A stretch of DNA of 64,000 nt from an uncultured bacterium (GCA_963722655.1 CAVRNT010000002.1:7461-71460); one strand, 5' to 3'; counted from the stretch's first letter, positions 10,102 to 64,000 are shown. Program-made: numbers and translations. Notes: a model not told the origin generated them from the letters alone.

Positions 10102-10140
10102 CAAATCCTCAGGGTTTATCTATTTTTAATATCGTCACTA

Positions 10141-10554: not shown

Positions 10555-10555
10555 A

Positions 10556-11023: not shown

Positions 11024-11036
11024 AAAGGAGGAACTT

Positions 11037-33594: not shown

Positions 33595-35174
33595 GTCTTT
33601 CCGCTGACAAGAAAAAGGGGGTGAAAATAAGGACCGTGAAGCGCCACGGGGCGTTTGCCGTCGCCGTCATAATCGCTGCAGAGGCTATTTTCTCCTTCTT
33701 CCTTTACCTCGCTATCGCCGGGAAGATTTTTGCGCCGCTTCCAGTGGAAGCCCAACCTGGCGTGCCCAACCTCATTTCATACCAGGGACGTCTCACGGAC
33801 ACCTCCGGCAATCCCTTAGGTGGGACAGGAACCGTTTATTGTTTCCGCTATTCCATCTTCGATGCCCAGAGTGGTGGCAATCAACTCTGGCCGGCGAACG
33901 GTAGCGCAACCACCACCCCCAGTAATTCAACGACAACCGTCACGGATGGCGTTTTCAGCGACCAGATCGGCCGGGTGGATAACCTCGCATCTTCATCGCT
34001 CCTTGATTTCATGTCCACCTCAACCTACTACCTGCAGGTTCAGGTGAGCACTTCGTCCCCAACATGCGCAAGCGGCCTAGAAACACTCGCGCCACGCCAA
34101 CAGATCGTCTCCGATGCTTGGGCTAGAACCGCGGCTAACGTTTACGGCTCCATCCGAACAAACGTCGCAAACAAGGTTCAGATCGGTTCCGGCGCCGGCG
34201 CCCAATCCGGCTACACCTTGCTGACCTTGGACCAGTCAAGCTCGAGCACGGAGGCGGTGGGTAACGCCTGCCCAAGCGGTGCGAGTAACGGCTCACTGTG
34301 GTACAACAACATATCTAGCCGCGCCCTCGTTTGCGAGAACAACCTCATCCAGGCCATTTCGAACGCCTCGACGACTATCGCTGGCATTACCGTGAACGCC
34401 ACGAGCGTCACGGCCGGGACGGTCGTGTTCCAAAACGGGAACAACGTCTCCTTTGGTATCAACGGGTCGACGATTACGGCAACCGCAGCTGCTGGCGGCG
34501 GGGGAGCTACCTTGAGCAATTTTTACTATCCACCCGGGGTCATGCAGAGTGCTATGTCCTTATTGTTGAACGCCTCCGGCGGGGTTCTTTCGTTAGTTCC
34601 TTTCCAATTAAATCAAGCACTGACCGCTAGCCGGGTAGCTATTATGGCTTCGATCACTGGCACGACCAGCGCTTCAGCTACTACTCAGTTACGTTCCAAC
34701 CAAATATCTCTTCAAATAGGCATCTATACAAGGGGTGGTGGGACATCCACGGCGAGCATCTATGCGGCCACGTCAATTGCAACAACTTGGTCGTGGAGCT
34801 GGAACGGTACAACAAACACGACAGTTCTCCAAAATATCACCGGCTGGCGGCGGTTGTCGGCGGCGGTGAACATTAACGCCACGCCGGGAGAATATTGGTA
34901 CGGCGTATGGATAAGTCAAGCCCAAACCAACACGGCCTCAGGAGTAGTTGTCTCCTTGGCGATAGGTGATTACAATTCGACTCTTATTTATGGAGGTAAC
35001 ATCAGTGCAATTACCAACTCTTCCCGGCAACCAATGTTGGGCATGGGCATTTACAGCAACAATACTACTAGTGGCTTGACCACATCTATGCCAATCACTT
35101 ATATTTTCGGTGGCGGGGCAACGGGCACACTTAATATGCCATGGATTTTGTTCACGGATTTTGATATGAACTAA
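33591..35174 (+). CDS. Large membrane-anchored/secreted beta-rich protein (hypothetical surface protein)
   Basis: N-terminal TM FAVAVIIAAEAIFSFFLYLAIAG; Gly/Ser/Thr/Asn-rich repetitive beta-strand sequence; GC content drops from about 34.5 kb inside the gene. Confidence 0.5.
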   Translation: MSLSADKKKGVKIRTVKRHGAFAVAVIIAAEAIFSFFLYLAIAGKIFAPLPVEAQPGVPNLISYQGRLTDTSGNPLGGTGTVYCFRYSIFDAQSGGNQLWPANGSATTTPSNSTTTVTDGVFSDQIGRVDNLASSSLLDFMSTSTYYLQVQVSTSSPTCASGLETLAPRQQIVSDAWARTAANVYGSIRTNVANKVQIGSGAGAQSGYTLLTLDQSSSSTEAVGNACPSGASNGSLWYNNISSRALVCENNLIQAISNASTTIAGITVNATSVTAGTVVFQNGNNVSFGINGSTITATAAAGGGGATLSNFYYPPGVMQSAMSLLLNASGGVLSLVPFQLNQALTASRVAIMASITGTTSASATTQLRSNQISLQIGIYTRGGGTSTASIYAATSIATTWSWSWNGTTNTTVLQNITGWRRLSAAVNINATPGEYWYGVWISQAQTNTASGVVVSLAIGDYNSTLIYGGNISAITNSSRQPMLGMGIYSNNTTSGLTTSMPITYIFGGGATGTLNMPWILFTDFDMN

Positions 35175-35180
35175 ATAAAA

Positions 35181-36173
35181 ATGAAAGATAACTTCAAATA
35201 CATCATTATCTCTGTTATCTTGGCGGCGGCAACATTCATCTTGGGGTTTTACGTGAGCAAGGTGAATAGTGGGGCACAGAATGCCTATGTCGCTCCCGTA
35301 AACGGCGATAGTACCGAAGCGACACAAAATAATCTTATTAACCCATCTGTGACGATGAACATCGGGAAACATTTCATCATCAACTTCAAGCCGCTCAAAG
35401 ACCAGCTAACGGCGATACAGAAAGAATATGCTCAAAAAACGTACATTTATTTCGATTATCTCAATAATGCTTCCTGGATCGGCTTGAACGAGAGGGACAA
35501 CTTTACGGCCGCGAGCACCGTGAAGGTTCCGCTTGCCATGGTGCTTATGAAAGCCGTTGAAGACGGAAAGTTGAAATTGACCGATTCATATGCCCTGGAT
35601 GATTTGGATTTGGACAAGAATTTCGGGGATTTATACAAGGTTGGTGCCGACCAAGCATTTACTATAGAGGAATTGCTTAAGATAATGCTGGAACAATCGG
35701 ATAACACGGCGATGCATGGCATCGTTAATGTTTTCAATAAAATCGGGATTGACGACCCGCTAGCGGGTGTATACGATGCCATGGGATGGGGGATAGGTAC
35801 CCCGAATTTATTGCCAGATGTGGGACAAACCGTGGATTACGGTCAGATAAATCTTAAAATGTTATCCAATATGTTCATCGCCCTTTATAACGCAGATTAT
35901 GTGAACGTGGAGCATTCCCAACAAATCCTGAATTACCTAGATAACACGCCATTCAACGACAAAATAGAAGCCGGCGTTCCAGCAAACATTTCGGTTGCTC
36001 ATAAGATAGGAACATCCGTAGACAACGAAACCTTCGCGGATTGTGGTATCATCTACGCCCCAAGCCGTAATTATCTTCTATGTCTCGCCTCCAACGGTGG
36101 GAACGATAATGTCGCTTCAGAATTTATGGCTGAAATTTCCAAGGCAGTTTATAGCTACGTTATGAAAAATTAA
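35181..36173 (+). CDS. Membrane-anchored serine hydrolase of class-A beta-lactamase fold
   Basis: SxxK (STVK), SDN (EQSDNTAM), KTG-like (HKIGTS) motifs; N-terminal TM; low GC. Confidence 0.65.
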   Translation: MKDNFKYIIISVILAAATFILGFYVSKVNSGAQNAYVAPVNGDSTEATQNNLINPSVTMNIGKHFIINFKPLKDQLTAIQKEYAQKTYIYFDYLNNASWIGLNERDNFTAASTVKVPLAMVLMKAVEDGKLKLTDSYALDDLDLDKNFGDLYKVGADQAFTIEELLKIMLEQSDNTAMHGIVNVFNKIGIDDPLAGVYDAMGWGIGTPNLLPDVGQTVDYGQINLKMLSNMFIALYNADYVNVEHSQQILNYLDNTPFNDKIEAGVPANISVAHKIGTSVDNETFADCGIIYAPSRNYLLCLASNGGNDNVASEFMAEISKAVYSYVMKN

Positions 36174-36175
36174 AC

Positions 36176-36979
36176 ATGGAAGAAACACGGAAGATTAAAA
36201 TCGACGAACTGCTAGCCACCGCAAAGGCCAAAGAATGGGAAACACGAGTGCTTCAGGGTAATACCTACAAGAATTTTTCGACCATCATTGTCATTGCGAC
36301 CCGTGGCAAAGGCGTCACGAACGTTAAATGCCCGAAATGCGACCACCCGTTCGAAGTGGAACATTGGGTCGGCCTCCACCCGTGGATAGTGGAGTCGTGG
36401 AAACGATTCATCAAGCCGATGAACATTCCGGTGCAAGAAATAATGATTTCAGGGCACGAGGTAGGTCAAGCTTATGAGGAAGCAGTTCAGGTTATCCTTG
36501 AAACACCGCAGTTCAAAAATTATCGCTACATACTTTTTCTCGAGGATGATATTATCGTGCCATTCATAAACAATTCTTTCGGGCCGCTCATCGAGCTTTT
36601 CAAACATATGGAGAAGTTTGATGTCGCCTCGGCCCTATACTGGACTAAAGGCGAACCGTCTTTACCTCTCGTCTATGGCGACGGTAACATCAACGCGTCC
36701 AGTCCATTCGAGGTCAATACCAATTGGCAGCCCGGTCAGACCGTCGAGGTGAACGGTTGCGGCATGGGCTTCGCACTCATGAAGAAGAATATATTTGAGG
36801 ATCCGCACCTCGAAAGGCCGTTTTTTAAAACCGTAAGTGAGGTTAAAGACGGCCAATACAAGGGTTATACGCAGGACCTGTATTTTTACGAGAAGATAAA
36901 GAGATTGGGTTATAAGATATGTGTTGACACCGGCGTCCGCTGCGGCCACCTGGATTTTCAGAGTGAGGTGGTCTATTGA
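36176..36979 (+). CDS. GT2-like (GT-A fold) glycosyltransferase with N-terminal CxxC element
   Basis: DXD (YILFLEDDII), GT2 C-terminal signature NGCGMGFALMKKNIFED; CPKCDHPF near N-terminus. Confidence 0.55.
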   Translation: MEETRKIKIDELLATAKAKEWETRVLQGNTYKNFSTIIVIATRGKGVTNVKCPKCDHPFEVEHWVGLHPWIVESWKRFIKPMNIPVQEIMISGHEVGQAYEEAVQVILETPQFKNYRYILFLEDDIIVPFINNSFGPLIELFKHMEKFDVASALYWTKGEPSLPLVYGDGNINASSPFEVNTNWQPGQTVEVNGCGMGFALMKKNIFEDPHLERPFFKTVSEVKDGQYKGYTQDLYFYEKIKRLGYKICVDTGVRCGHLDFQSEVVY

Positions 36980-37872
36980 TCATGGAGAGAAACCAGTTCG
37001 ACGAATTATTGGAGAACGTTAAGCGCGTATATGGACCGTTTTATTCATACACTCTTAACTTTGAGAAGACTATTACCCCTAGGGAAGATCTAGGCGTATT
37101 TTTTAACCGCCTATTATACATCACGAACGATATGTTTCGGGATATTCCTATCAAAAAGATCAGAGTTCTAGATCTCGGCTCTTATGAAGGCATATATTCG
37201 GTGGGCTTTGCTCAACTAGGCGCAGAGGTGGTCTCGGTTGAAGGGAGGAGAATCAATTTCGCCAAGATGAAGGTGGCTAAAGAATATCTGGGCTTGCGGA
37301 AGCTCGATGTGGTTCAAGCTGATGTCCGAACCATCACGAGAGAAACATACGGTCGCTTTGACATCGTGCTTGCCTGCGGAATTATGTATCACCTGGATGC
37401 CCCTTCGGTTTTCGAAGTGTCCAAAAACATATCTGATATGGCCGAGCGCTTGGCTATTATCGACACACACATTTCTCTGTCCCGCCCGGTCAGCCATATC
37501 TACAAAGAAAGAGCTTATTGGGGTATGATTCATAAAGAATTCGACGCTGGTATCTCAACTCACGAAAAAGAATTATATCTCGCTAACGCACTAGATAATA
37601 ACGAGAGTTTTTGGCTGACGAAAATTTCCTGGTTAAATCTCCTGAAGAGTCTAGAGTTCAACACGGTTTATGAGTGTTTGGTACCCCAAGCGGAACGGGA
37701 AAAAAGATTATACGACAGAGCAACGCTTGTTGCAGTTAAAAATCTAAAATCTAAATCGTTCTTCCCGGTTTCTATTTCTCCGGACCCGCTATCAGAACAG
37801 ATCGGAGAGACGATATTCATTATGCAGGATAATCAACCCATTCCCAACGATAACGGAATAATTGTAAGATAA
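36976..37872 (+). CDS. Class I SAM-dependent methyltransferase
   Basis: Motif I VLDLGSYEG, acidic loop VVSVEGR, motif FDIVLACGIMYHL. Confidence 0.65.
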   Translation: MIMERNQFDELLENVKRVYGPFYSYTLNFEKTITPREDLGVFFNRLLYITNDMFRDIPIKKIRVLDLGSYEGIYSVGFAQLGAEVVSVEGRRINFAKMKVAKEYLGLRKLDVVQADVRTITRETYGRFDIVLACGIMYHLDAPSVFEVSKNISDMAERLAIIDTHISLSRPVSHIYKERAYWGMIHKEFDAGISTHEKELYLANALDNNESFWLTKISWLNLLKSLEFNTVYECLVPQAEREKRLYDRATLVAVKNLKSKSFFPVSISPDPLSEQIGETIFIMQDNQPIPNDNGIIVR

Positions 37873-37877
37873 AATCC

Positions 37878-38639
37878 GTGGTAGATGTTGTAATCCCAAC
37901 CAAAAAAACTTCACCTTTCTTCGATGCGAGCATCGATTCGTTAAAATACATCCCGTTCCCTTATAAATTACACCTCATTACTAAAGGTACTAGCTGGGCT
38001 GAGGCGATAAATATCGGCTTTGGGGAGAGCGAAAATGATGTGCTCATAATGGACGACGACACGATTCTGGAACCCGACACATTCAGGAATTTTAAACCAA
38101 TTGGGGACATAACCGGATTCAAATTAAGAGGCGGGGATGGGAAAATTAACCATGCCGGGAGCTATGTCGAAATTAGCGATTTCTCATATTGCAATGCTCC
38201 AGTCTCTCCATATTTTCCCGAAACACCGGATATCGTTATTAACTGCCATGCCGGATTTGGGCATCTCTCGGAAGATATAACCGAACCTATCGAGGTTCCT
38301 CATTGCACCGCCTCGCTGCTCTATATCAAGAAAAATGTCTGGCAAAAATTGCACGGTATAGCAACCGACTATCCGGGTTACCAGTACGAGGACGTGGATT
38401 TTTCTTTCCGGGCTCTGAAAGAAGGGTTCAAGATAGTTTGCCTGCCCAATGAAGCGATCCACCATTTGGGAGCAACTAAGGGCTCCGACCCGAATTTCCC
38501 TCAGAAAATGTCGGTCAATCTAAAAATTATCACTCGAAAATTTTTTAGTGACCCGGAATTTATAGGACTCCTTTACAAGAGAGGGCTTGTCAATGGGCAT
38601 TCATCAATCTTTACAAATTCAGATTTTCTGATAAAATAA
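37878..38639 (+). CDS. GT2-like glycosyltransferase
   Basis: N-terminal VVIPTKK, DXD in VLIMDDDTIL, GT-A spacing. Confidence 0.55.
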   Translation: MVDVVIPTKKTSPFFDASIDSLKYIPFPYKLHLITKGTSWAEAINIGFGESENDVLIMDDDTILEPDTFRNFKPIGDITGFKLRGGDGKINHAGSYVEISDFSYCNAPVSPYFPETPDIVINCHAGFGHLSEDITEPIEVPHCTASLLYIKKNVWQKLHGIATDYPGYQYEDVDFSFRALKEGFKIVCLPNEAIHHLGATKGSDPNFPQKMSVNLKIITRKFFSDPEFIGLLYKRGLVNGHSSIFTNSDFLIK

Positions 38640-38704
38640 TTACTTAATTAAGTTCTTTTAAAATTCACTTTCCCCGATAAACTCAGAAATGGAGGACAGC
38701 CGTC

Positions 38705-39706
38705 ATGGCAGAAGAGTTCTACAACAGGTTTAATTCCTTAAAGATCCTGATTTTTTCTGACAGGTTGCAGGAGATCGCTGTCGGCGGATTGCCGTACCCG
38801 TTGATCTGGCACATTTACCCGACCAATCACTGCCCCTTAGATTGCGATTTTTGTATCATGGCCGAGGAAAGGGAAAACAAGGTTTCCCTCCCCAGAGAGA
38901 TTCTTTTGAAGGCTATCCGGGATGCCGCCGAACACGCGAAAACCATACATTTTTCCGGAGGCGGGGAACCGACAGCTCACCCCGATCTTTTGGAAGCGAT
39001 CGAACTAGCTAAGAGATCCGGCTTGAAGGTGGCACTTTCGACCAACGGTGTTTCCCTGACCCAGAAAATATTTGATCTGGTAGATTTTCCGCGGGTCAGC
39101 TTGAACGCTGCTACAAAAGAGGTCTTCCGAAGCAATACCGGCACCGATCTTTGGGACAAAATCATCGAGAACATCAAAGATCTCAAGGGCAACAAGGGTA
39201 AATTAGGACTAGGATTCGTATTGACCCCGGAAAACCAAAGAGACCTTTACGGTTTTTGCAAGTTGGCGAACGACCTCGGCATTAGTTGGGTCCACATCCG
39301 GCCGGCTTTTCTAAAGAAAAGGAACGAAGAGGTCAGAGCCCTGATGCCCGAATCGACCAGGATCATCGATGGTGCTAAGGAGGATTTCCCCGACTTGGTG
39401 ATTCACTTCAAAACGGACAAATTCGACGGCTATTGGACGCCAAGGAGGTACGATAAGTGCCGGGCAACACCATTATTAGCGGTGCTGAAGGCGAACGGCA
39501 AATTCTGCGTTTGCCAAGACAGGGTCGACCTGGAATACGGCGATTATCGGAAACAATCCTTCGAGGAAATTTGGCGCTCAAAAGAACATCTGGAAATACT
39601 GAAGAGAATCAATCTCGAAGAATGTCCCAGATGTGTCGAGACGAAGAAGAACGAGTACATCCAAAAAATCTTCATAGAGGATGGATTTGTAAGAGATATT
39701 CTCTAG
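38705..39706 (+). CDS. Radical SAM enzyme with C-terminal Cys-rich (SPASM/twitch-like) region
   Basis: CPLDCDFC (Cx3Cx2C) at residues about 43-50, GGEP motif (FSGGGEPTAHPDL), C-terminal CVCQDR...ECPRC cysteines. Confidence 0.75.
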   Translation: MAEEFYNRFNSLKILIFSDRLQEIAVGGLPYPLIWHIYPTNHCPLDCDFCIMAEERENKVSLPREILLKAIRDAAEHAKTIHFSGGGEPTAHPDLLEAIELAKRSGLKVALSTNGVSLTQKIFDLVDFPRVSLNAATKEVFRSNTGTDLWDKIIENIKDLKGNKGKLGLGFVLTPENQRDLYGFCKLANDLGISWVHIRPAFLKKRNEEVRALMPESTRIIDGAKEDFPDLVIHFKTDKFDGYWTPRRYDKCRATPLLAVLKANGKFCVCQDRVDLEYGDYRKQSFEEIWRSKEHLEILKRINLEECPRCVETKKNEYIQKIFIEDGFVRDIL

Positions 39707-39721
39707 CATACGTAAGAATTA

Positions 39722-39756
39722 GCCTGTTCAGTTATGAAACTGAACAGGCGTTTTTT
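39722..39756 (+). terminator. Rho-independent terminator after the radical SAM gene
   Basis: GCCTGTTCAGTT-atga-AACTGAACAGGC 12-bp stem followed by TTTTTT. Confidence 0.65.
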
Positions 39757-39776
39757 AAAATAGGCCTCGCGCGCTG

Positions 39777-39785
39777 TGTTATAAT
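39777..39785 (+). promoter_or_regulatory. Candidate extended -10 promoter (TGtTATAAT) for downstream methyltransferase
   Basis: TGTTATAAT at 39777-39785; SD AAGAGGGA 8 nt before ATG 39810. Confidence 0.35.
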
Positions 39786-39809
39786 GCCATACGTAAGAGG
39801 GATGAAACC

Positions 39810-40319
39810 ATGAAACTGGATATCGGCTGTGGCCCAAATAGACAGAAAGGATTTAAGGGAACGGACGTCATTTCAGGACCTACCGTGGATTTTGTTTTGG
39901 ACCTGGAGAAATTTCCTTGGGAACCGTTCGCGGACAACTCCTGCGACGAAATCTACACGTCTCATTATGTGGAAAAAACGAAAGACCTCATTAAGTTTAT
40001 GGACGAAATGTGGCGCATCTGCACTCCGAACGCTAAAATTACGATAGTCGCCCCTTACTACACCTCGATCCGCGCCTTTCAGGATCCCATGGCGACCCGT
40101 TTGCTTTCCGAAGCCACGTGGCCATATTTCAATAAGGAATGGCGCACCGCAAACAAGCTCGATCACTACCCGATCAAGTCGGATTTTGCCATTGAAAAAA
40201 TAATGGTCTTTTTTAACCAGCCATGGGACAAGAAATCCGAGGAGGCAAGGGAGTTCGCTAAAACCCATTACTGGAACGTCGTCTCCGATATTCTCGTCGA
40301 GCTCAAAGCCGTAAAATGA
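39810..40319 (+). CDS. SAM-dependent methyltransferase (type 11-like, small)
   Basis: Motif I LDIGCGPN, acidic DVIS, SCDEIYTSHYVE motif. Confidence 0.65.
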   Translation: MKLDIGCGPNRQKGFKGTDVISGPTVDFVLDLEKFPWEPFADNSCDEIYTSHYVEKTKDLIKFMDEMWRICTPNAKITIVAPYYTSIRAFQDPMATRLLSEATWPYFNKEWRTANKLDHYPIKSDFAIEKIMVFFNQPWDKKSEEAREFAKTHYWNVVSDILVELKAVK

Positions 40320-52525: not shown

Positions 52526-52597
52526 GGGCGTTTAGTTCAGTGGTAGAACGTTGCATTCACATTGCAAAGATCGCTGGTTCGATCCCAGCAACGCCCA
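52526..52597 (+). tRNA. tRNA-Val (anticodon CAC)
   Basis: Acceptor GGGCGTT/AACGCCC, anticodon stem TTGCA/TGCAA loop TTCACAT, T-arm GCTGG-TTCGATC-CCAGC, discriminator A; no encoded CCA. Confidence 0.85.
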
Positions 52598-52661
52598 CTA
52601 AAGTTGCCGAAAGCGACATATTTACCCCACTTAACGGTGGGGTTCCTGCTATACTTATCTC

Positions 52662-53399
52662 ATGAAACACAAAGAGGGGTTTTCGCAGATAGCGGTCATA
52701 TTGATCGCGATTGGGATAGTCGTAATCGGGGGAGCGATATGGTATTTTTCTTCGCGGGGACCTGCGGTTATACCTACTCCAATTTCTCAAAATGAAACCG
52801 AGGGTTGGCAGACATACACTACTAGCAGTTACGGCGGATTTTCATTTAAGTACCCGGCGAATCTCACGATTGCTTATAATGGATCAAATGATACATACAG
52901 CCCAATCGTATGGACGGTGGCATTCAGCGATGGAACGGACATAGAGTTAATAACGAAAGATGCGTGGCAGCAATTGGCTAGCTACGAAAAGAATACTATT
53001 TTAGTCTCACCGTCAAGCACATACCAGTTTAATTATCAGCAATTTGAAAGCCCAGATGGTTCAATGAGAGGCGCTTCATGTTTCGAGACGTCGGATGAGT
53101 CGGTTGGGCTACTAGATGCAAATTTTATTGTTGAGGCAATGGATATGAATGGGAATTACATCTTCGTCTCAAGTGTCGATTTGATAAGTGATCCAATGAC
53201 CGATCCGGCATTCAGTGCACTTGATAAACAATACTCGGAGTTATTCATGAGCACGTCAACGGATGCTAATATGAGAGCAGAGCAATTTAAGAATAACGAT
53301 ATCGTGAATTACTTCAACAGCCCTCAGGCACGCCAAGACGCATCGAGCACCGTAAAAGAAGTGGAGCAGATAGCATCCTCTGTGCATTTCAACCAGTAG
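52662..53399 (+). CDS. Membrane-anchored extracellular hypothetical protein (low GC)
   Basis: N-terminal TM IAVILIAIGIVVIGGAIWYF; remainder beta-rich, no motif. Confidence 0.45.
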   Translation: MKHKEGFSQIAVILIAIGIVVIGGAIWYFSSRGPAVIPTPISQNETEGWQTYTTSSYGGFSFKYPANLTIAYNGSNDTYSPIVWTVAFSDGTDIELITKDAWQQLASYEKNTILVSPSSTYQFNYQQFESPDGSMRGASCFETSDESVGLLDANFIVEAMDMNGNYIFVSSVDLISDPMTDPAFSALDKQYSELFMSTSTDANMRAEQFKNNDIVNYFNSPQARQDASSTVKEVEQIASSVHFNQ

Positions 53400-53433
53400 G
53401 GATCGAATGCATCAAGAGCCGTTCCATAATTAT

Positions 53434-53575
53434 CCCTTCCGTCATTTTCTCTCACCTTTCCCTGTGGATTTCTTTCTCGTACAATGACCATATGGCAGGG
53501 GAAGATGTAGGTCTTCGAAGATCTTCTCAAAGAAGAAAGTTCTAACATCCTCCACTAACCTCCACAAAAGTTGCC
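53434..53575 (+). repeat. Direct repeat copy 1 (about 140 bp, about 85% identical to 54545-54685), internally hairpin-forming
   Basis: Shared blocks CCCTTCCGTCATTTTCTC...TTTCTTTCTC...GGGGAAGATGTAG(G/A)TCTTCGAAG(A/G)TCTT..CAAAGAAGAAAGTTCTAACATCC(T)TCACTA..CTTCACA. Confidence 0.6.
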
Positions 53576-53591
53576 GCTTTAGTCATAAAAA

Positions 53592-53617
53592 CCCATCTTC
53601 TCGGATGGGCTTTTTTG
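53592..53617 (+). terminator. Rho-independent terminator following repeat copy 1
   Basis: CCCATC-ttctcg-GATGGG then CTTTTTT. Confidence 0.5.
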
Positions 53618-53706
53618 TGGGATAGTATAGGAATGAATCCCAGTAAAAAAATAAAAGTGCCGATCCTTATTAAGGACTATGTCTCTAATGCGGAAGCTGC
53701 GGTAAG

Positions 53707-54102
53707 GTGAAACCATTTTTAGCTGGTTCTGATCAACTGGAATACACCGAGGGCGACCTGCTTTACCGAGACGTCTACTACACCGGCAACGGCCTCTTCA
53801 TGGGCTTGGAGGTCGTACATCTCAAAGGGAAGCCGGTGCTTTCGATGTCTTACTACGGCAACTTCAAGAAGATGACCGAGGAAGAGGTTGACGGCGTTTT
53901 AAAACAAGCCCTACTTGCTACCGCTAACACTACCCGAATCTGGAAGCACGCGGAATGGGAGAAAGGGGAATACAAATACGTCTGCGAACCGGACTTTGAT
54001 GGTTCACTCGACGAGTTCGCTGGCCTGGAACAGATATCCAAGTCAAGTGAGAGTGTTTACCGCTTTTTCTATGCCGGCGGCTTATTAAACGAACTAGCGT
54101 GA
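53707..54102 (+). CDS. Hypothetical protein (131 aa)
   Basis: ORF in the repeat-bracketed cassette, 4-nt overlap with the next gene; start may be GTG; no family recognised. Confidence 0.4.
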   Translation: MKPFLAGSDQLEYTEGDLLYRDVYYTGNGLFMGLEVVHLKGKPVLSMSYYGNFKKMTEEEVDGVLKQALLATANTTRIWKHAEWEKGEYKYVCEPDFDGSLDEFAGLEQISKSSESVYRFFYAGGLLNELA

Positions 54103-54533
54103 AGATACTGTTCGTCTGCAAGGGCAATGTTGGTAGGAGCCAGATGGCTGAGGCGATTTTTAATAATCTCGCCAAGGGAAATCATCATGCCTATTCCGCA
54201 GGGACATGGGTCTATGATAAGGAAGGTAAGAGTCTAGAAGGGCAAAAGATAGAAGAGGTAGATGAGGCATTGGTTGTCATCAACTCCCTGAAAGAGCTGG
54301 GCATCGATGTTTCCAAGAAACAACGAAATCAGGTTACACCAGAAATGATCAGGGAAGCAGATAAAATTGTTGTTATGGCGGAAGAACACACTATTCCCGA
54401 CTTCCTAAGAATCAGCGATAAGGTCATCTACTGGGAAATTGAGAACCCTAAAGGTATGGACCAATTAGATACAAACAAGATACGTGATCAGATAGCTGAT
54501 CGTGTTAGAAAATTAGTGTCCGAGTTAGATTAG
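54099..54533 (+). CDS. Low-molecular-weight phosphotyrosine phosphatase / ArsC-like (LMW-PTP fold)
   Basis: P-loop ILFVCKGNVGRSQMAEA (CX5R-S), single Cys, later aspartate (DxxD) region; 144 aa. Confidence 0.7.
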   Translation: MKILFVCKGNVGRSQMAEAIFNNLAKGNHHAYSAGTWVYDKEGKSLEGQKIEEVDEALVVINSLKELGIDVSKKQRNQVTPEMIREADKIVVMAEEHTIPDFLRISDKVIYWEIENPKGMDQLDTNKIRDQIADRVRKLVSELD

Positions 54534-54544
54534 GTTATGAATTG

Positions 54545-54685
54545 CCCCTTCCGTCATTTTCTCCTACCTTTTCCTGTTAATTTCTTTCTCCTATGATTAC
54601 TCCATGGTAGGGGAAGATGTAGATCTTCGAAGGTCTTGTCAAAGAAGAAAGTTCTAACATCCTTCACTAGCCTTCACAATGGACA
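54545..54685 (+). repeat. Direct repeat copy 2 (overlaps truB start region)
   Basis: See copy 1; ends at the truB ATG (54679). Confidence 0.6.
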
Positions 54686-57302: not shown

Positions 57303-58888
57303 CCGCGCTCTTCGGTATTATCTTCGGCCTTTTAGGTCTCAATTTGTTCCGCCTCCAGATAGAGAACGGGGGCTACTACTTCGCCCGCGCCGAGGCGCGG
57401 AATCAAGCCCTCGCCCAGTCCAATCTCACGCGGGGGCAGATCTTTTTCACGGACCGGAGCGGCAACAAGATCACGGTCGCGATGGACCAACCCTACCCCG
57501 TAATCTACGCCGTCCCGCAGGAGATCGCGGACCCGTCCTCGACCGCCGCCGCTCTCGCGCCGGCGATCGGCTGGGACCCCGGAGCCCTCGCCAAAGCCCT
57601 GGACAATCCGAAAAGTTTGTTCCGGATGCTCATCGAAAAGGCGACGCCCACCGAGACCGACGCCGTCACGGCCCTCAACTTGAGCGGCATCTATACCGAC
57701 GAGAAGGACTACCGTTACTATCCTTTCGGGACGCTCGCCGCGCAGGTCGTCGGCTTCGTGGGACTCAACAGTTCGACTTCGCAGCCGGCGGGCCTCTATG
57801 GTCTCGAGAACCAGTACAACGCTGAGCTCGCGGCGGGCACCGACCTCCAGACCACCATCGACCGGACGCTCCAAGCCCAGTCGGAGGAGATCTTGCAGAA
57901 CCTCATGACCGCCCGGAAAGCTGAGGGAGGCACCATCATCATCGAGGACCCGAAAACTGGCGCCATCCTCACCTTCGCCAATTCACCGACCTTCGACCCG
58001 AACGCCTACGCGAGCTCGTCCGTCTCCACTTTCATCGATCCGGGCACGGAATATTTTTACGAACCTGGCTCCGTCTTTAAAGCCATCACGATGGCGATCG
58101 GCATCGATGACGACATCTTCACCTCGAGCACGACCTACACCGACCCCGGCTACGTCGTGTTGAACGGGAAGAAGATCACGAATTACGACCACAAGGCCTA
58201 CGGCCCCGGCACGACGATGACTGGGGTCATTATGCATTCCATCAATACCGGCGCCGTCTGGGCCGAGCAGCAGATCGGGAGCAAGCTTTTCTCCCAAGGT
58301 GTCTTCAATTTCGGTTTCGGCTCCCCGACTGGCATCGACCTGCCGAACGAGATCGGCGGACGGACCGTGAACCTAACGAACAAGAACGCTGAGCCGGTGG
58401 ACTTCGCGACCGTCGGCTTCGGCCAGGGGATTGGCGTAACCCCCATCCAGATGGTGAACGCCTACGCGGCCCTGGCGAACGGTGGCCTTCTGATGCGGCC
58501 CTACGTCAACGCGGCTCTCGGGCCCGAGGTCGTGCGGCGGGTTATAAGCCCGGCCACGGCCAAGGAGGTCACCTTGATGATACAGATCGCGGCGGAAAAC
58601 GGCGGGGTCGCGAACATCCCGTCCTTCCACGTGGCGGGGAAGACCGGCACGGCCCAAATTCCGGATTTGGTCCACGGCGGCTACACCCAAAACTACATCC
58701 ACACCTTCGTCGGCATGGTGCCGGCGACCGACCCACGCCTCGTCATTCTTCTCAAGTTGGACAATCCCGACGTGGGCGACCTCGCGGCCCTGACCGTCGT
58801 TCCGGCCTTCCGCCAACTGGCCTCCTTCGCTATGAACTACCTGAACGTCACCCCGGATAATCCGAACAACATCGTCACTAAACCATGA
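57278..58888 (+). CDS. ftsI: Penicillin-binding protein 2/FtsI-type transpeptidase
   Basis: N-terminal TM, dimerisation domain, transpeptidase motifs SVFK (SxxK), SIN (SxN), KTGT. Confidence 0.85.
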   Translation: MGFRFIFLTALFGIIFGLLGLNLFRLQIENGGYYFARAEARNQALAQSNLTRGQIFFTDRSGNKITVAMDQPYPVIYAVPQEIADPSSTAAALAPAIGWDPGALAKALDNPKSLFRMLIEKATPTETDAVTALNLSGIYTDEKDYRYYPFGTLAAQVVGFVGLNSSTSQPAGLYGLENQYNAELAAGTDLQTTIDRTLQAQSEEILQNLMTARKAEGGTIIIEDPKTGAILTFANSPTFDPNAYASSSVSTFIDPGTEYFYEPGSVFKAITMAIGIDDDIFTSSTTYTDPGYVVLNGKKITNYDHKAYGPGTTMTGVIMHSINTGAVWAEQQIGSKLFSQGVFNFGFGSPTGIDLPNEIGGRTVNLTNKNAEPVDFATVGFGQGIGVTPIQMVNAYAALANGGLLMRPYVNAALGPEVVRRVISPATAKEVTLMIQIAAENGGVANIPSFHVAGKTGTAQIPDLVHGGYTQNYIHTFVGMVPATDPRLVILLKLDNPDVGDLAALTVVPAFRQLASFAMNYLNVTPDNPNNIVTKP

Positions 58889-60192
58889 TGAAAACCATCG
58901 TTTTAAAAATAATTGCCTGGAAACTTAAGCTCATCGCGCGCCTCACCGTCCTCAAGTACCGACCGGCGATCGTGGGCGTGACCGGGAACGTCGGCAAGAC
59001 CTCGGCCAAGCTCGCGATCGCAGCCGTGCTTTCCGCCGACCGGAAAACCCGGGTCTCGGCCAAGAATTTCAACAACGAGCTGGGTCTGCCTTTGAACATC
59101 ATCGGCGATTTCAAATCGAGCGAGGGTCTCGGCGTCTGGTTGCGGGCGCTCGCCTTGGGCGTGAAAAACCTAGTTCTCACGACGGACTACCCCGAGGTCC
59201 TCGTCCTCGAATACGGCGTGGACCGGCCGGGGGATATGACCTATCTCTTGGGCATTGCAAGGCCCCAGATCGGGGCGGTGACAGCGATCGGCCGAATTCC
59301 GGTCCACGTGGAGTTCTTCCAAGGGCCGGAGGGCATCGCCAAGGAAAAGTCCAAGCTGGTCAGTTTCCTCCCCGCGACCGGTTTCGCGCTCCTCAACGCC
59401 GACGACGAGACCGTTTTAAAAATGAAGGAGCAAACTCGGGCCCACGTCGTGACCTTCGGCTTCGATCCGAAGGCAGATATGCGCATCACGAACTTCCAGA
59501 ACCGGTTCGACCCGGAAACGGGTGAGGCCGGGATTTCCTTCAAACTCAAATACGGCGGGAGTATGGTGCCCATACGCATCCCCGGCGTTTTCGGCCGGAC
59601 CACCGCTTACGCCTCGGCTGTGGGCGCCGCGACCGGCCTCGTCTTCGGAATGAACCTATTGAAGATCTCCGAGGCGCTTTCGAACTATCGCGGCCCGGCC
59701 GGCCGTTTGCGGGCAGTGCCTGCCATTCGAGGCGGGATGATCGTCGACGACACATACAATTCTTCGCCCCACGCGGCGCGCGAGGCCCTGGAGACATTAG
59801 GGATGCTCAAAGCCAAACGGAAGATCGCCGTTCTGGGGGATATGCTGGAACTCGGCAAATACACGATGGAGGCCCACAAAGAGATCGGGAAATTGGCCGC
59901 GAAGACCGCCGATCTGCTCGTGACCGTGGGGGCCAGGGCGAAGTTCATCGCCGAGGCGGCCGAGGGGGCCAAGATGCCGAGGAAGGATATTGCGGCCTTC
60001 GAATCCGTTTCCGAAGCGGGGATTTGGCTCGCTGAGCGGGTGAAGAAAGGTGATTTGGTCCTCGTGAAGGGCTCGCAGGGAGTGCGGATGGAGAAAATCG
60101 TCAAGGAATTGATGGCCGAACCCTTGAAGGCTAAAGAGACGCTGGTCCGCCAATCGCCCGTCTGGCTTGCGAAATCGGGACTCTACGAGTAA
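58885..60192 (+). CDS. murF: UDP-N-acetylmuramoyl-tripeptide--D-alanyl-D-alanine ligase MurF
   Basis: P-loop VGVTGNVGKTSAKLAIAAVL, Mur ligase central and C-terminal domains. Confidence 0.88.
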   Translation: MMKTIVLKIIAWKLKLIARLTVLKYRPAIVGVTGNVGKTSAKLAIAAVLSADRKTRVSAKNFNNELGLPLNIIGDFKSSEGLGVWLRALALGVKNLVLTTDYPEVLVLEYGVDRPGDMTYLLGIARPQIGAVTAIGRIPVHVEFFQGPEGIAKEKSKLVSFLPATGFALLNADDETVLKMKEQTRAHVVTFGFDPKADMRITNFQNRFDPETGEAGISFKLKYGGSMVPIRIPGVFGRTTAYASAVGAATGLVFGMNLLKISEALSNYRGPAGRLRAVPAIRGGMIVDDTYNSSPHAAREALETLGMLKAKRKIAVLGDMLELGKYTMEAHKEIGKLAAKTADLLVTVGARAKFIAEAAEGAKMPRKDIAAFESVSEAGIWLAERVKKGDLVLVKGSQGVRMEKIVKELMAEPLKAKETLVRQSPVWLAKSGLYE

Positions 60193-60207: not shown

Positions 60208-60282
60208 GGCCCTATCGTCTAGTGGCTAGGACGGCGCCCTCTCACGGCGCAAACAGGGGTTCGACTCCCCTTGGGGCTACCA
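60208..60282 (+). tRNA. tRNA-Glu (anticodon CTC), CCA encoded
   Basis: Acceptor GGCCCTA/TGGGGCT (two G.U pairs), anticodon stem GCGCC/GGCGC loop CTCTCAC, T-arm AGGGG-TTCGACT-CCCCT, 3' ACCA. Confidence 0.75.
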
Positions 60283-61759
60283 AATTAGATTTTTTACCGT
60301 CGTAAGTCTGGTTAAGCTCATAAATCTTAGCCAATTTACTGTTTCCAAATCTCTTGCCGTCAAAGTATATTTTTTCGGGAAATACGTTCTTTTGGAAACG
60401 CATTTTAAAGTCATAGCGGAGCCGCTTCCATGTTGCTGCGCTATTACGAACGAACTCGAAGCAGTATGCTAGTGCCTCGTCCATATTGAATTCATCAATG
60501 CGGTTTTCGTTCCCAAGCCGGGATTTCTCGCGGATCTTATTATTGATGATATTCTTCTGCTCAAGAAACTCATCATCGTTATAAACGCCGGACCTATGAA
60601 GATTGAAGATTTCCTGTCGTTCATTTTCCAGTTTTTCAATTTCCCGCCGAAGTTGGCCGTTAGCCGCGTCGAACTTCTTAAAATTTGATTGCCAAACATC
60701 AATCATGATTTCCCTGAACCACTTCTCGTACCTGACATTCGGTGTGATGGAATGCAAGTACTCAATAAACAACTCCTCAAATGTTGACTTGGGTATGAAC
60801 GAAGCGTTTCTGCATTCTTGCTTGTGGTGATGATAATATGGATATCGTTTGCCGTTTCTACCTCGTGAATTACTCCCAGTGATCTGGCATAAGCAATCCG
60901 AGCAGAAAGATCTCCGCAATGGGAAATCCTCATTAACGACCTGCCGTCTGAAGGATCGGTTGTTGCTCTCACGCCTCGCTTGGCACCTGGCAAAAAGTTC
61001 CTTCGAGACAATAGGCTCGAAGTTGCCCTCCACACGAAAGCCCCAAACATCTATGATGCCGGCGTATATTTCATTCTTAGTAATCTTCTCAATGAGCTGC
61101 GGGAAGGGTCTTTTTCCGTGCCTTGTTCTAAGACCTCGTTCCGCCACGAAATCAGACAAAGACTCATAGCTATACGTCCCCTTAGCCCACTCATCAAAGA
61201 TAAGCCGAATATATGCTGCTTTTTCAGGATCGGGAACGATGTTGGAGCCATGGTGCGGGCGATAATAGCCAAGGGGCGACTGCCAAACCCAGATCCCTTG
61301 TTTGATGCGCTCTATCATCCCACTTTTGGTTCTTTCAGTTCTCATATTATTATCAAGTTCAGCGAACACAGAAATCATTCCTTCCATCGCCCTGCCTATC
61401 GAGGTCTCATTAATCGGTTCGGTGACAGACCGCAACTCAGTGTTGTAACGTCTCAACATTCCTCGCACGGAGACATGATCGTCCTGGTTCCTTGAAAAAC
61501 GATCGAGCTTGTAAACAATAAAGAAATTTACAGGCCGCTTTTTATTCGAACAGAGGCTAATTGCCTTTAGGAATTCGGGGCGATCCGCTGTCTTCGCTGA
61601 CTCGCCCTTGTCAATGAACGCAGCTAATACTTCGATATTGTTTCTTGACGCCCATTCACGACAAAGGCGTTCTTGCATTTCTAAGCTCGTACCTTCAACC
61701 TGCTCCTTCGAAGATACGCGGCAATAAATCACTCCTGTTCTATTCCCCTCGATTTGCAT
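60242..61759 (-). CDS. Large serine recombinase (resolvase/integrase family)
   Basis: N-terminal catalytic domain GVIYCRVSSKEQ (Ser nucleophile), DRFSRN, then recombinase domain and Cys-rich region (CSDCLCQ...C). Confidence 0.85.
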   Translation of the reverse strand: MQIEGNRTGVIYCRVSSKEQVEGTSLEMQERLCREWASRNNIEVLAAFIDKGESAKTADRPEFLKAISLCSNKKRPVNFFIVYKLDRFSRNQDDHVSVRGMLRRYNTELRSVTEPINETSIGRAMEGMISVFAELDNNMRTERTKSGMIERIKQGIWVWQSPLGYYRPHHGSNIVPDPEKAAYIRLIFDEWAKGTYSYESLSDFVAERGLRTRHGKRPFPQLIEKITKNEIYAGIIDVWGFRVEGNFEPIVSKELFARCQARRESNNRSFRRQVVNEDFPLRRSFCSDCLCQITGSNSRGRNGKRYPYYHHHKQECRNASFIPKSTFEELFIEYLHSITPNVRYEKWFREIMIDVWQSNFKKFDAANGQLRREIEKLENERQEIFNLHRSGVYNDDEFLEQKNIINNKIREKSRLGNENRIDEFNMDEALAYCFEFVRNSAATWKRLRYDFKMRFQKNVFPEKIYFDGKRFGNSKLAKIYELNQTYDGKKSNLVAPRGVEPLFAP

Positions 61760-61941
61760 AACTTAATTCTATTAGCTTCCCGCAATCTTTGTAAGACCCC
61801 AACGGGATATTTGGAAACAGCTCCATTTTCAAGCCAGTCATCAAAAATCAGCTGGCCTAGGTCATAAAGAGCGTTGCGAATTTCAATAATCTCATCATCA
61901 GACAGATGAATTTCCGCATCTTGTTTCATGTTCCTTCTCAT
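61729..61941 (-). CDS. Small hypothetical protein (70 aa) upstream of recombinase
   Basis: ORF overlapping recombinase start by about 30 nt; acidic; no family. Confidence 0.3.
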   Translation of the reverse strand: MRRNMKQDAEIHLSDDEIIEIRNALYDLGQLIFDDWLENGAVSKYPVGVLQRLREANRIKLCKSRGIEQE

Positions 61942-62081
61942 CCACGATAGGGGAACATGGGGGAAATCTTAAGGTGGGACTTATTGCTAGAAGGAGGACA
62001 TTGTCCAGTCGTACCGGTGAATTACCCCGTTGGGAATACCATTGAAATGTAAAGAATAGTAAACTATACTAACATGGCAGA

Positions 62082-62612
62082 ATGGATACAGCAACCATCA
62101 GAAAATATGTCCGGCTTTACGACGCAGAAAGATGCCTTTTTGAAGAAGTCGGCCCACAAGCCAGTCGAAGAGGATATTTGACGTTCAGAGAATTTTACGC
62201 GATATGTATTTGGAAATCGGCAAGGCAAAAGCAAAATTATCTTCAGAACGAGGGTAAGAAGTGTGTAGAGGATATAACGAAGAAAGCGTTTTCCACCGAA
62301 GACGAAAAGGAAAAAATCAAACTCCTTTGCAAGTTGAGAGGCGTTAAAATTCGGACTGCATCTGCTTTGCTCACAGTTGTGTTTCCAAACAAATATGCTG
62401 TCCTGGATATCAGGTGCCTAGAGATGTTGGAAGAGCAGTTTCGCTCCGGGATCTCAAAATCTGTTTCCCTGAAAACATGGCTGGAATACCTTTCGAAGAT
62501 GAGGAGCCTTGCAAGCGGCTACGGGATCACTCCAAGACAATTGGATATGGCGCTATTTGCAATGCACAAGGAAAAATTGGAGAATATGAACCATAGGAAC
62601 TTATATCAATGA
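62082..62612 (+). CDS. Hypothetical protein with possible helix-hairpin-helix (HhH-GPD/Ogg-like) segment
   Basis: LRGVKIRTASALLTVVFPNKYAVLDIRCLE resembles an HhH followed by catalytic-Asp position of HhH-GPD glycosylases; weak. Confidence 0.35.
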   Translation: MDTATIRKYVRLYDAERCLFEEVGPQASRRGYLTFREFYAICIWKSARQKQNYLQNEGKKCVEDITKKAFSTEDEKEKIKLLCKLRGVKIRTASALLTVVFPNKYAVLDIRCLEMLEEQFRSGISKSVSLKTWLEYLSKMRSLASGYGITPRQLDMALFAMHKEKLENMNHRNLYQ

Positions 62613-62794
62613 AGACTGTGGAAAGCAAAGAGTTTTATACAGCGCAGGAACTCGCCGACAAGTTGGCAGTGAACATAATGACGATCTATAGATATATCAA
62701 AGCAAGGCGGCTCAAGGCGTACAAAATAGGCAAGGAGTTCAGGATTGATAAGAACGAATTCGGAAGATTCTTAAAGAGATCTGAAACAAAATGA
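62609..62794 (+). CDS. Excisionase-family helix-turn-helix DNA-binding protein
   Basis: 61 aa; YTAQELADKLAVNIMTIYRYIKARRLKAYKIGKEFRI typical of MerR-superfamily excisionase HTH. Confidence 0.65.
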   Translation: MKTVESKEFYTAQELADKLAVNIMTIYRYIKARRLKAYKIGKEFRIDKNEFGRFLKRSETK

Positions 62795-64000
62795 GCAATC
62801 TAAATAAACACGACATTGAGTTTTTAATTGATTGCCTTAAAAACGGAAAAGAAATTCCGGAGGTTTATAAGTACGCAATTTTCCCGACTAAGCAAATGGA
62901 ATACGAGCTTGTCTACGCGGGCAAAATGCGGAAGGAAGATGTGCTTGCCGATACAGAAGAAGCCAAGCCTGTACCGCTCCAAATCGAAAAAGTCTTTAAT
63001 GGGAAAACGTACCCGCTCTTTTCCAGAGATTGGCGCAACCTTCTGGTTTTTGGGGACAATCTGCAAATTCTGAAGACATTCTATGAAGACAAAGATCCCC
63101 TCATAAGAGGAAAAGTAAAGGGGAAAGTGAAACTTATTTACATAGATCCGCCTTTCGGTACAGGCGACGAGTATGAAGGATCTGGCAATTCGGGTGCCTA
63201 TAGCGCGAAAAGAAAAGGGGCAGATTTTGTAGAGTTCTTGCGCAGACGATTGATACTTTTGAGAGAGATGCTCGATCCGCTAGGATTCATACTGGTTAGA
63301 CTGGATTATCACTTTGGCCATTACACAAAAGCCGTCTTAGATGAAATATTTGAAAGAAGTAATTTTCGTAATGAGTTCATTGTCAATCGAGTCAAGAAAA
63401 ATGTCACTGAAAAAGGAAGAAGAACGATTCCGAATGCGGTAGATAGTATTTTTGCTTATTCTGCGACGGAAAGTGCTGAGTATAAATACATACTTAGGCA
63501 ACTAAAAGAGAGGCGAGAAGGATATTGGCACAATATGGAATCAGCGGGCTATTCGGGACCACGGCAAGTCGTTATTACTGGGAAGACGTATTATCCGACC
63601 AAGAACTCCCATTTTAAATTCACTCAAAAACAAGCAGATGAAATGATAGCTGCCGGGAGAATAAGAGTGAACCCACGAAGCAACAAACCAGAATATTGGG
63701 TAGAAGCAAAAGATTTTGAGACATTAGACAGTAATTGGTCTGATATACCAGGGTACACTTTCACGACAGGTTATCCCACTGAAAATTCCGAAGATCTACT
63801 AACTAGAGTAATAAAACTGACGACGGATGATGGCGATTTAGTCATGGACGTTTTCGCTGGAAGCGGGACTTCTCTTGCGGTTTCAGAAAAGCTCGGACGC
63901 CGCTGGGTTGGTTGCGATATTGGCAAGTTATCCATTTACACAATTCAAAAGCGACTGCTTGGAATCGATGAAAGTAAGGATTTAGGGAATCCAAAGAGGA
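62791..64000 (+). CDS. DNA methyltransferase, beta class (N6-adenine or N4-cytosine), 5' partial; continues beyond window
   Basis: Motif IV DPPF (IYIDPPFGTGDEY) precedes motif I FxGxG (VMDVFAGSGTSLAV), the beta-class order; ATG 62791 overlaps preceding stop. Confidence 0.8.
   Translation, partial: MSNLNKHDIEFLIDCLKNGKEIPEVYKYAIFPTKQMEYELVYAGKMRKEDVLADTEEAKPVPLQIEKVFNGKTYPLFSRDWRNLLVFGDNLQILKTFYEDKDPLIRGKVKGKVKLIYIDPPFGTGDEYEGSGNSGAYSAKRKGADFVEFLRRRLILLREMLDPLGFILVRLDYHFGHYTKAVLDEIFERSNFRNEFIVNRVKKNVTEKGRRTIPNAVDSIFAYSATESAEYKYILRQLKERREGYWHNMESAGYSGPRQVVITGKTYYPTKNSHFKFTQKQADEMIAAGRIRVNPRSNKPEYWVEAKDFETLDSNWSDIPGYTFTTGYPTENSEDLLTRVIKLTTDDGDLVMDVFAGSGTSLAVSEKLGRRWVGCDIGKLSIYTIQKRLLGIDESKDLGNPKR

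Follow-up and report, generated by a model that had tools for sequence, protein, structure and literature searches.

Serine integrases are the main tools for the insertion of large DNA segments, and their natural targets are thought to be protein-coding genes. Here, a 64,000-nt stretch of DNA from an uncultured bacterium (GCA_963722655.1, CAVRNT010000002.1:7461-71460; the whole stretch is called the window) was analyzed around the region of 60,208 to 64,000, where the gene of a 505-aa large serine recombinase (LSR), denoted LSR1, ends inside a tRNA-Glu gene. The window very probably holds the left, tRNA-side junction and the adjoining 4.3 kb or so of a small integrative element, which belongs to a family of tRNA-targeting serine integrases and of which the present copy is now broken. 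The support is computational only, and the architecture of the junctions was established in 11 related elements.

The LSR1 family has the same order of domains (resolvase, recombinase, zinc ribbon and coiled coil) as the integrases of PhiC31, Bxb1, Listeria A118 (LI Int), SPbeta (SprA) and TP901-1, and, as in other large serine integrases, its attachment (att) sites are short and have a very short common core. In the half-site model for LI Int, only the distal motif is reportedly displaced, by 5 bp in attP, with the proximal motif staying where it is; the LSR1 family fits this model in having one motif that is offset by 5 bp between its attB and attP arms. However, the identity of LSR1 to the phage integrases in INPHARED is at most 28%, and the family targets the 3′ end of tRNA genes instead of a protein-coding gene. 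Its attP also differs from those of the known enzymes in lying inside the open reading frame (ORF) of the integrase, of which the C-terminal ~30 residues are exchanged, and the protein has an additional C-terminal helical domain.

The SSV1-type archaeal tyrosine integrases have attP inside the int gene and a tRNA target, and their integration alters int. The LSR1 family likewise combines an attP within the integrase ORF with a tRNA target, by analogy and not by membership, because the SSV1-type enzyme is of the tyrosine family, which is unrelated to the serine family of LSR1. In addition, int is split into two non-functional parts in the SSV1 type, whereas the LSR1 family swaps only the tail and leaves the catalytic and DNA-binding domains intact. 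The islands of P4-like tyrosine integrases (the Islander/TIGER class) resemble the LSR1 elements in that their insertion point is in the 3′ part of a tRNA gene, which is restored from the DNA of the element, and in that the integrase gene adjoins the tRNA; unlike in the LSR1 family, a direct repeat of the tRNA, tens of bases long, remains after insertion. The Ccr enzymes of SCCmec are, like LSR1, large serine recombinases that insert at the very 3′ end of a conserved gene (rlmH/orfX) and preserve it, but that target is protein-coding and the att site lies outside the ccr ORF.

In the 2015 survey of tRNA islands by Hudson et al., no serine integrase was known to use tRNA genes (PMC4383910), and the large LSR survey of Durrant et al. 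in 2022 gave protein-coding targets only, with tRNA unmentioned in its main text (PMC10083194). Our literature search on tRNA-targeting serine recombinases turned up, besides general surveys, only a preprint on Thermotogota Group 1 proviruses (Marinitoga MPV1 and others; 10.1101/2020.11.07.368316). The accessible part of this preprint describes serine recombinases at the provirus end that adjoin tRNA-Glu, tRNA-Phe and tRNA-Pro genes, most often tRNA-Glu, and the hypothesis of its authors that serine recombinases target tRNA genes; the same part reports no att mapping, ORF overlap or tail exchange. The likeness is one of description only; those are whole proviruses, and the LSR1-family elements span 4-11 kb. 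No report of an attP inside the integrase together with a tRNA target was found for a serine recombinase in this search.

In the window, the murF gene (58885..60192, plus strand; Mur_ligase_M and Mur_ligase_C domains) forms the host flank and is the final gene of the division and cell wall (dcw) cluster in this lineage. It is followed by the gene of tRNA-Glu(CUC) (60208..60282, plus strand, anticodon ctc; called by ARAGORN), the predicted integration target and attB side of the left junction, and by LSR1 on the opposite strand (60242..61759, minus strand; Resolvase and Recombinase domains). The LSR1 ORF and the tRNA gene share 41 nt (60242-60282). Read on the opposite strand, the CCA end, acceptor stem, T arm and variable region of the tRNA supply the final 13 codons of LSR1, LVAPRGVEPLFAP, and anticodon bases 35-36 together with A37 give its TGA stop. 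Both this overlap and a fall of the G+C content (GC) to about 42% had been noticed in a first-pass annotation made from the sequence alone, and both were borne out; the measured GC changes from 0.59-0.62 over 56-60 kb to 0.41-0.47 from ~60250. The overlap is far beyond chance, because the arrangement recurs in 40 of 71 related loci with a frame that is fixed relative to the tRNA 3′ end. By analogy with the 11 related elements, the core of the left junction is predicted at 60273..60282, which reads GGGGCTACCA, the antisense of TGGTAGCCCC, and spans acceptor nucleotides 68-72, the discriminator and CCA; on the same analogy, the crossover of this copy is expected within 60274-60280.

Homologues of LSR1 number 1853 at E ≤ 1e-10, nearly all of ~505 aa, and the tails were compared in the best 120 of these 1853. 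A tRNA-antisense tail (G[VIFL]EP or RIEL) is present in 96 of the 120; its pattern, ..KKSxLVAPRG[VIFL]EPxF, is what the T loop, acceptor stem and CCA end of a tRNA encode when they are translated in reverse complement. A further 12 have an alternative, mutually conserved tail, ..LVxxVGxxWNQLxxELxxWxxF, hereafter the WNQL tail. A metagenome scan gave 71 usable LSR loci with 32-65% identity, and in 40 of them the LSR stop lies inside a called antisense (minus-strand) tRNA: Glu-TTC in 20, Glu-CTC in 8, Ala in 5, Lys in 3, Arg in 2, and Asn and Met in 1 each. Thirteen further loci of the 71 have a tRNA-like tail with no tRNA called, in many cases since the contig stops there, and 11 have the WNQL-type tail. 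With one exception, the overlap lengths equal 2 modulo 3, that is, the frame relative to the tRNA end is fixed. The length of 41 nt is common to the window and the loci L084 and L086; the homologue tRNAs looked up are tRNA-Arg(TCT) and tRNA-Glu(TTC). The LSR1 family is large, apparently uncharacterized and found here mainly on contigs from uncultured bacteria.

The second junction was sought with a hidden Markov model (HMM) of the WNQL tails in six-frame translations. Eleven integrated elements (L084, L086, L093, L096, L098, L101, L102, L113, L134, L166 and L173) have orphan WNQL tails, which occur on the strand of the LSR only and upstream of it only, with a distance of 4.0-11.4 kb to the tRNA, and in L086 and L084 the orphan tail coincides with a GC step, where the low-GC segment starts. 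The free and integrated tails diverge directly after the core, and the orphan tails sit at the far junction. The two junctions of an element share GT[AG][GA]CC(C), with or without TGG, amounting to 7-12 bp in the 11 elements. The shared core is the antisense of the discriminator and acceptor nucleotides 72-68, and on the element side TGG (CCA) stands before it. Because this TGG is missing from the host flank in 5 of the 11 elements, where the element side supplies it, the junction sequences indicate that the crossover would fall within the 7 shared bases and that the element would donate the final few bases of the tRNA.

Joining the halves rebuilds an attB that consists of the host flank and the tRNA 3′ end and, since the junctions share only 7-12 bp, an attP that is inside the recombinase ORF; for L086, the reconstructed attP is ...AAATCCCAATTGGTGACCCAAGTGGGAGAGAATTGGAACC... 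and the attB is ...GAATTCGCTGAGGGTGACCTTACCGGGATTTGAACCC.... In the attP arms of all 11 elements, TGGAAY, the codons of W-N, is at a constant 23 nt from the start of the core, and in the tRNA arm TCGAAC is 5 bp nearer the core than this. GAAYC accordingly takes positions +26 to +30 in 11/11 attP arms versus +21 to +25 in the tRNA arms, and GGG takes +14 to +16 in both. GAAYC may be the motif of the zinc-ribbon domain, with an offset of 5 bp between the attB and attP arms, and the crossover would be near core positions 5-6. The free form is represented by L088, in which an LSR with an intact tail and no tRNA lies among relaxase, TraG-like and primase genes. Apart from L113, the collected loci contained no independent copy of an empty site or a free attP that fits the reconstructed sites.

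The exception, L113, carries an additional attB copy at 4182-4241 (98% over 60 nt), which unites the host flank with 20 nt from the start of the tRNA antisense and precedes the far junction of its element by ~340 nt, on the upstream side. Other loci look like tandem or nested elements. In L089 (1347-8089), a second element, with a recombinase that ends in tRNA-Ala, comes after a family recombinase that has the free-form tail, and in L094 (7351, 10001-11569) and L135 (2826, 10001-11581) an additional orphan tail is upstream of a free-form recombinase.

The proposed mechanism is as follows. Elements of the LSR1 family would integrate at the extreme 3′ end of tRNA genes, mostly those of tRNA-Glu. 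In the free element, attP would lie inside the 3′ end of the integrase ORF, which past the core would encode the conserved helix ..VGxxWNQLxxELxxWxxF. Strand exchange, presumably performed by the serine recombinase itself, would take place inside the 7-12-bp core that is common with the tRNA (CCA, discriminator and acceptor nucleotides 72-68). Integration would rebuild the tRNA with its final bases taken from the element, and the integrated ORF would continue into the antisense strand of the tRNA, acquire the tail ..LVAPRGVEPLFAP in the case of the window, and stop at the anticodon, while the original tail of the integrase would stay behind as an orphan at the far junction. The cargo of the window copy would formerly have been a type III restriction-modification (R-M) module comprising a protein with similarity to helix-hairpin-helix (HhH) proteins, a helix-turn-helix (HTH) protein, Mod and Res. 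This copy would have been broken 4.3 kb in, where mod was cut after codon 606 and joined to a 5′-truncated traG-like gene.

The protein itself has the features of a large serine recombinase. The catalytic domain of LSR1 is at residues 10-156 (PF00239 Resolvase, E = 7.9e-33), the Recombinase domain is also detected (PF07508, E = 8.7e-12), and no variation occurs in the YCRVSS motif, which includes the nucleophilic serine S16, across alignments of 26 and 52 sequences. All invariant alignment columns, among them the family-invariant cysteines C286, C289 and C316, are present in LSR1, which is itself a member of the alignment. A zinc ribbon (PF13408) is on record for many of the homologues, and Pfam detected none in LSR1 itself. 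No Phage_integrase domain of the tyrosine family was found in LSR1; the enzyme is a serine recombinase. Its best NCBIfam match is CcrB, far under the cut-off of that family. An AlphaFold2 model of the free-form homologue P0026 (mean predicted local distance difference test score of 83) has resolvase and recombinase domains, a zinc-ribbon region and, at 343-420, a long helical hairpin; in its additional C-terminal helical domain, the final confident helix, 504-520, is the WNQL tail. The top Foldseek matches of this model are the serine integrases of SPbeta, Bxb1 and PhiC31, all three full-length, and of LI, with E values from 1e-16 to 1e-10. Judging from the model, integration would swap a structured helix for a Pro/Gly-rich peptide at the C-terminus of the integrase.

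An ORF of ~55-70 aa is directly upstream of the LSR gene in nearly all of the related loci, with the consensus MLSxEQxRKIDPxLxxLSDEELxxIRxxLYxLGQLxF.... Its homologue in the window is the 70-aa ORF at 61729..61941 (minus strand), which overlaps the start of LSR1 by 31 nt and had no match in Pfam, NCBIfam or PADLOC. On account of its conservation and position, this ORF of ~60 aa is the best candidate for the recombination directionality factor or cofactor. The tail exchange might further be a built-in switch, in which the free form of the enzyme, with its final helix, and the prophage form, with its tRNA-encoded tail, differ in activity or directionality with the ~60-aa ORF as the partner, in what would be the first defined family of tRNA-targeting serine integrases and one of very high abundance among uncultured bacteria. 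We regard this extension as tentative and rather doubtful; if true, it would be a control of integration and excision that has not been described for serine recombinases.

The cargo shows where this copy was broken. To the right of the window, the sequence was taken from a Logan contig (L001, L174), which shares 1911 nt with the window (62090-64000) at 100% identity and reaches the window-equivalent position 80,628. The gene that leaves the window at its end (62791..64000, plus strand) is a type III-like mod gene of a beta-class N6/N4 methyltransferase (N6_N4_Mtase, E = 2e-32; PADLOC MTase_III, E = 4e-56), in which, as the first-pass annotation had stated, DPPF (residues 119-122) precedes the FxGxG-type motif, FAGSGT (residues 355-360). 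Two plasmid Mods, each with a DEAD-box helicase Res downstream, show 46% and 38% identity to it. The identity to the 688-aa Mod P0127, from an operon of HTH, RadC/HhH, Mod and Res (856 aa, ResIII/SWI2_SNF2), is 77% up to residue 606, and past that residue the two are unrelated. The homology to the Mods of 671-688 aa ends after codon 606, at L001 2519 (window-equivalent 64,608), so that ~81 residues are missing. Exactly at this point GC rises from 0.40 to 0.56, and from L001 2521 the sequence belongs to an out-of-frame traG-like gene from which ~105 N-terminal codons are missing, and with them the Walker A motif. A tblastn search for the rest of mod, made with the C-terminal parts of two Mods, found nothing; with two Res proteins, tblastn likewise found nothing in the window and the next 8.8 kb, and no ResIII gene was called up to 80.6 kb. 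The earlier suggestion that the methyltransferase is part of an R-M or other defence module thus stands as far as the R-M family is concerned, given the identity to a Res-paired Mod, but not for a functional module, since mod is truncated and res is absent.

No second junction was recognized in the sequence on the right. Apart from the tRNA itself and chance matches, a search for a second copy of the tRNA-Glu 3′ end by blastn-short and core 7-mers gave no match of more than 10 nt in 20 kb, and the pattern GT[AG][GA]CC-N13-17-TGGAA returned only the tRNA and chance matches in L001, the whole window and L174. The six-frame HMM search for the LSR1 orphan tail gave nothing below E = 0.97 in the window with L001 (72.8 kb) or in L174 (to 80.6 kb). 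With neither a res gene nor a right junction inside 20 kb, the copy looks truncated. Most likely it is an immobilized remnant, of which the integrase and its partner ORF look intact, at the edge of a larger mosaic island.

The genes beyond the break are of several kinds. At L001 4674-6638 (window-equivalent 66763-68727) is a second, unrelated serine recombinase of 654 aa, LSR2, which has two C-terminal HTH_3/XRE domains, an unusual fusion. The 278,717-nt NCBI contig has on record a 465-aa C-terminal piece of LSR2, and this contig probably ends or is disrupted inside the LSR2 gene. L174 6840-18296 (window-equivalent ~69.0-80.5 kb) is a mosaic of defence- and mobile-type genes. The low-GC block to the right of LSR2 contains a dCTP-deaminase-like gene with a C-terminal membrane-like extension, the gene of a FAD protein and an AP-endonuclease-2/UvdE-like gene; further right in L174 are the genes of a second TrwB/TraG-like ATPase, a SymE toxin, a radical-SAM/SPASM protein, a 665-aa AAA_21/SMC_N ATPase and a SET-domain protein. 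PADLOC gave no match for the four genes tested at L001 6919-10652.

The first-pass annotation had read the locus as a classical tRNA island, in which a contiguous murF-mraY cluster is interrupted after murF, ~40 nt of the tRNA 3′ end is duplicated as a direct repeat, and the 61-aa HTH protein is the excisionase. Its central claim, that a mobile element is integrated at tRNA-Glu and that the overlap is an att junction, agrees with the relatives, which have murF and tRNA-Glu(CUC) without a recombinase. In the MurF relatives drawn from GTDB, all of them, to judge from their titles, uncultured Patescibacteria-type metagenome-assembled genomes (MAGs), the loci L005-L014 (MurF identity of 56-62%) likewise have tRNA-Glu(CUC) after murF, at a site free of any recombinase. 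There, murF and the tRNA are followed by genes for RmuC, a nucleotidyltransferase, DedA, an RsmI-like methylase and glycosyltransferases, and mraY, murD and ftsW come after murF and the tRNA in none of these relatives. In the nearest relative by MurF (83%), L004, a small secreted-protein gene follows murF, and the contig stops 650 nt beyond murF without a tRNA. Because the element-free relatives also finish the dcw cluster at murF and tRNA-Glu, the break after murF is ancestral, the variable feature being the occupancy of the tRNA site, and the claim of a split cluster fails. The ~40-nt repeat is not present within 20 kb either, and the related elements duplicate 7-12 bp only; a long repeat is not to be expected, because it belongs to the tyrosine-integrase picture, and the enzyme here is a serine recombinase. 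The HTH protein does match the 'excise' family, but the other LSR1-family elements are without its gene and carry the conserved ORF of ~55-70 aa instead. The abutment of the recombinase gene on the tRNA 3′ end and the fall in GC there would also suit a classical island, but this picture is very improbable as a whole. A reading in which the overlap is an accident of annotation, where an invertase, a resolvase or a domesticated gene unrelated to the tRNA reads through for want of a stop, could appeal to the Pro/Gly-rich tRNA-derived tail, which is unlikely to be structured. It is scarcely credible, however, in view of a read-through in a fixed frame and at a fixed distance from the KKSxLV motif in nine tRNA species and in homologues down to 32% identity, of orphan tails that mark a second junction on the same strand, and of the GC-distinct cargo of 4-11 kb between the junctions.

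Two further explanations concern the right side. The element in the window could be intact but larger than 20 kb, composite or in a tandem array, with its far junction further right than the sequence reaches and the mod/traG junction as a nested insertion. Some family members do lie on elements that measure at least 17 kb and carry genes for relaxase, TraG and primase, L089, L094 and L135 have tandem arrangements, and the 20 kb rightward is rich in genes of the mobile and defence types (two TraG-like, a second LSR, the SymE toxin and the AAA_21 ATPase). This is nevertheless unlikely, as the 11 mapped elements span only 4.0-11.4 kb, and both genes at 64608 are truncated, with neither the rest of mod nor res anywhere in the 80.6 kb, a pattern that is not explained by a simple nested insertion. 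Alternatively, the mod/traG junction and the sequence to its right could be a metagenome mis-assembly of two genomes, with the true right half missing. The GC jump exactly at the junction would suit such a chimera, as would the low-GC right part, which is known from one Logan contig only. Yet the NCBI contig has genes from both sides of the 64,608 junction on record, namely the 61-aa HTH and the LSR2 piece, the Logan contig carries the same stretch as the window with full identity over their overlap, and the break is in-frame-independent and codon-precise, like a real rearrangement. The junction is seen directly on the Logan contig only, its placement on the NCBI contig coming from gene records and not from sequence, and on balance we consider a mis-assembly quite improbable. 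The reading of the locus as the left junction of a broken tRNA-targeting element has several points against it, some of which are shared with the assembly question. The second junction of the window element was not found in the 72.8 kb of the window and L001 or, with L174, up to 80.6 kb, and for this copy the model holds by analogy with the related elements. Past ~68.2 kb the Logan contig is the sole source, the NCBI contig has no gene on record to the right of LSR2, and the two assemblies may have reads in common. No convincing symmetric (inverted) motif was seen in the left arms of the two att sites, attP and attB; in tandem arrays such as those of L089 and L094 the hybrid junction looks like attP, and the pairings that this implies are non-canonical for LSRs; and the ends of the elements were placed by the junction signature and GC steps.

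The remaining two genes of the cargo precede mod in the same operon. The first is a 176-aa ORF (62082..62612, plus strand), for which the HhH-like label of the first-pass annotation corresponds to weak similarity of the Ogg type (Ogg-HhH, E = 3.5e-4; NCBIfam N-glycosylase, E = 1.8e-10, 40.6 bits versus a cut-off of 183), with both matches under the curated cut-offs. A look-up of the exact protein gave no record. The second is the predicted 61-aa HTH protein of the excisionase type (62609..62794, plus strand; HTH_17, E = 2e-10; TIGR01764 'excise'), which is present as described and whose gene overlaps its neighbours at both ends. Since the other LSR-family elements that were compared have no such gene, a role in regulating the mod operon is more likely for this protein than one as the excisionase of the element. 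A small HTH gene and an HhH-type gene are upstream of both the window mod (62082-62794) and the mod of P0127 (L175 6045-7004), and the pairs come from different families, HTH_17 with the Ogg-like gene in the window and HTH_3 with RadC in L175. These two genes may represent a recurrent accessory slot in this lineage of type III R-M systems. The 176-aa ORF as a homologue of the RadC/HhH gene of L175 was rejected, there being no similarity between them. Assignment of the HTH and methyltransferase genes to the methylation-associated defence system (MADS) was not adopted either; the matches of the HTH protein to mad1 (PADLOC, E = 1.6e-8; NCBIfam MAD1, 27.6 bits versus a cut-off of 80) and of the TraG-like fragment to mad8 (PADLOC, E = 5e-7) are weak and sub-cut-off, and none of the other mad genes was observed.

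The decayed type III R-M module that this copy carries is ordinary cargo. With its short and highly conserved natural target, the last ~25 bp of tRNA-Glu and other tRNA genes, the LSR1 family would widen the target range of serine integrases and would offer candidate integrases with near-universal landing sites. The mobilome of candidate-phyla bacteria is poorly known, and an integrase ORF that ends in a tRNA, together with an orphan WNQL tail, provides a signature by which small mobile elements can be mapped in these bacteria.

Several minor observations were made at related loci. The 5.8-kb element of L093, which carries the closest relative of LSR1 (76% identity), has a Terminase_2 (small terminase) gene at 4928-5308, so that some of these small elements may, judging from this gene, be phage satellites. 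In L084 (11475-12829), tRNA-Arg(TCT) has the serine-integrase element on its 3′ side and a tyrosine integrase gene immediately on its 5′ side. Between the closely related MAGs of L005 and L006, the 77-nt tRNA-Glu gene by murF is exactly inverted with 100% identity (L005 11321-11396 and L006 4064-4139), and L005 has ~700 additional nt with a 156-aa ORF; the inversion could reflect recombinase activity at the tRNA or an effect of assembly.

Elsewhere in the window, a low-GC island (0.43-0.46) at 52600-54650 directly follows tRNA-Val(CAC) (52526-52598). It holds a 245-aa ORF without a Pfam match, a 131-aa ORF and a low-molecular-weight phosphatase gene, with no recombinase seen, and L004 is without this segment, truB following tRNA-Val almost directly. 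A 5-kb block at 35000-40000 has a GC of 0.42-0.46 inside a backbone of 0.57-0.60 and contains five ORFs of 250-333 aa on the same strand.

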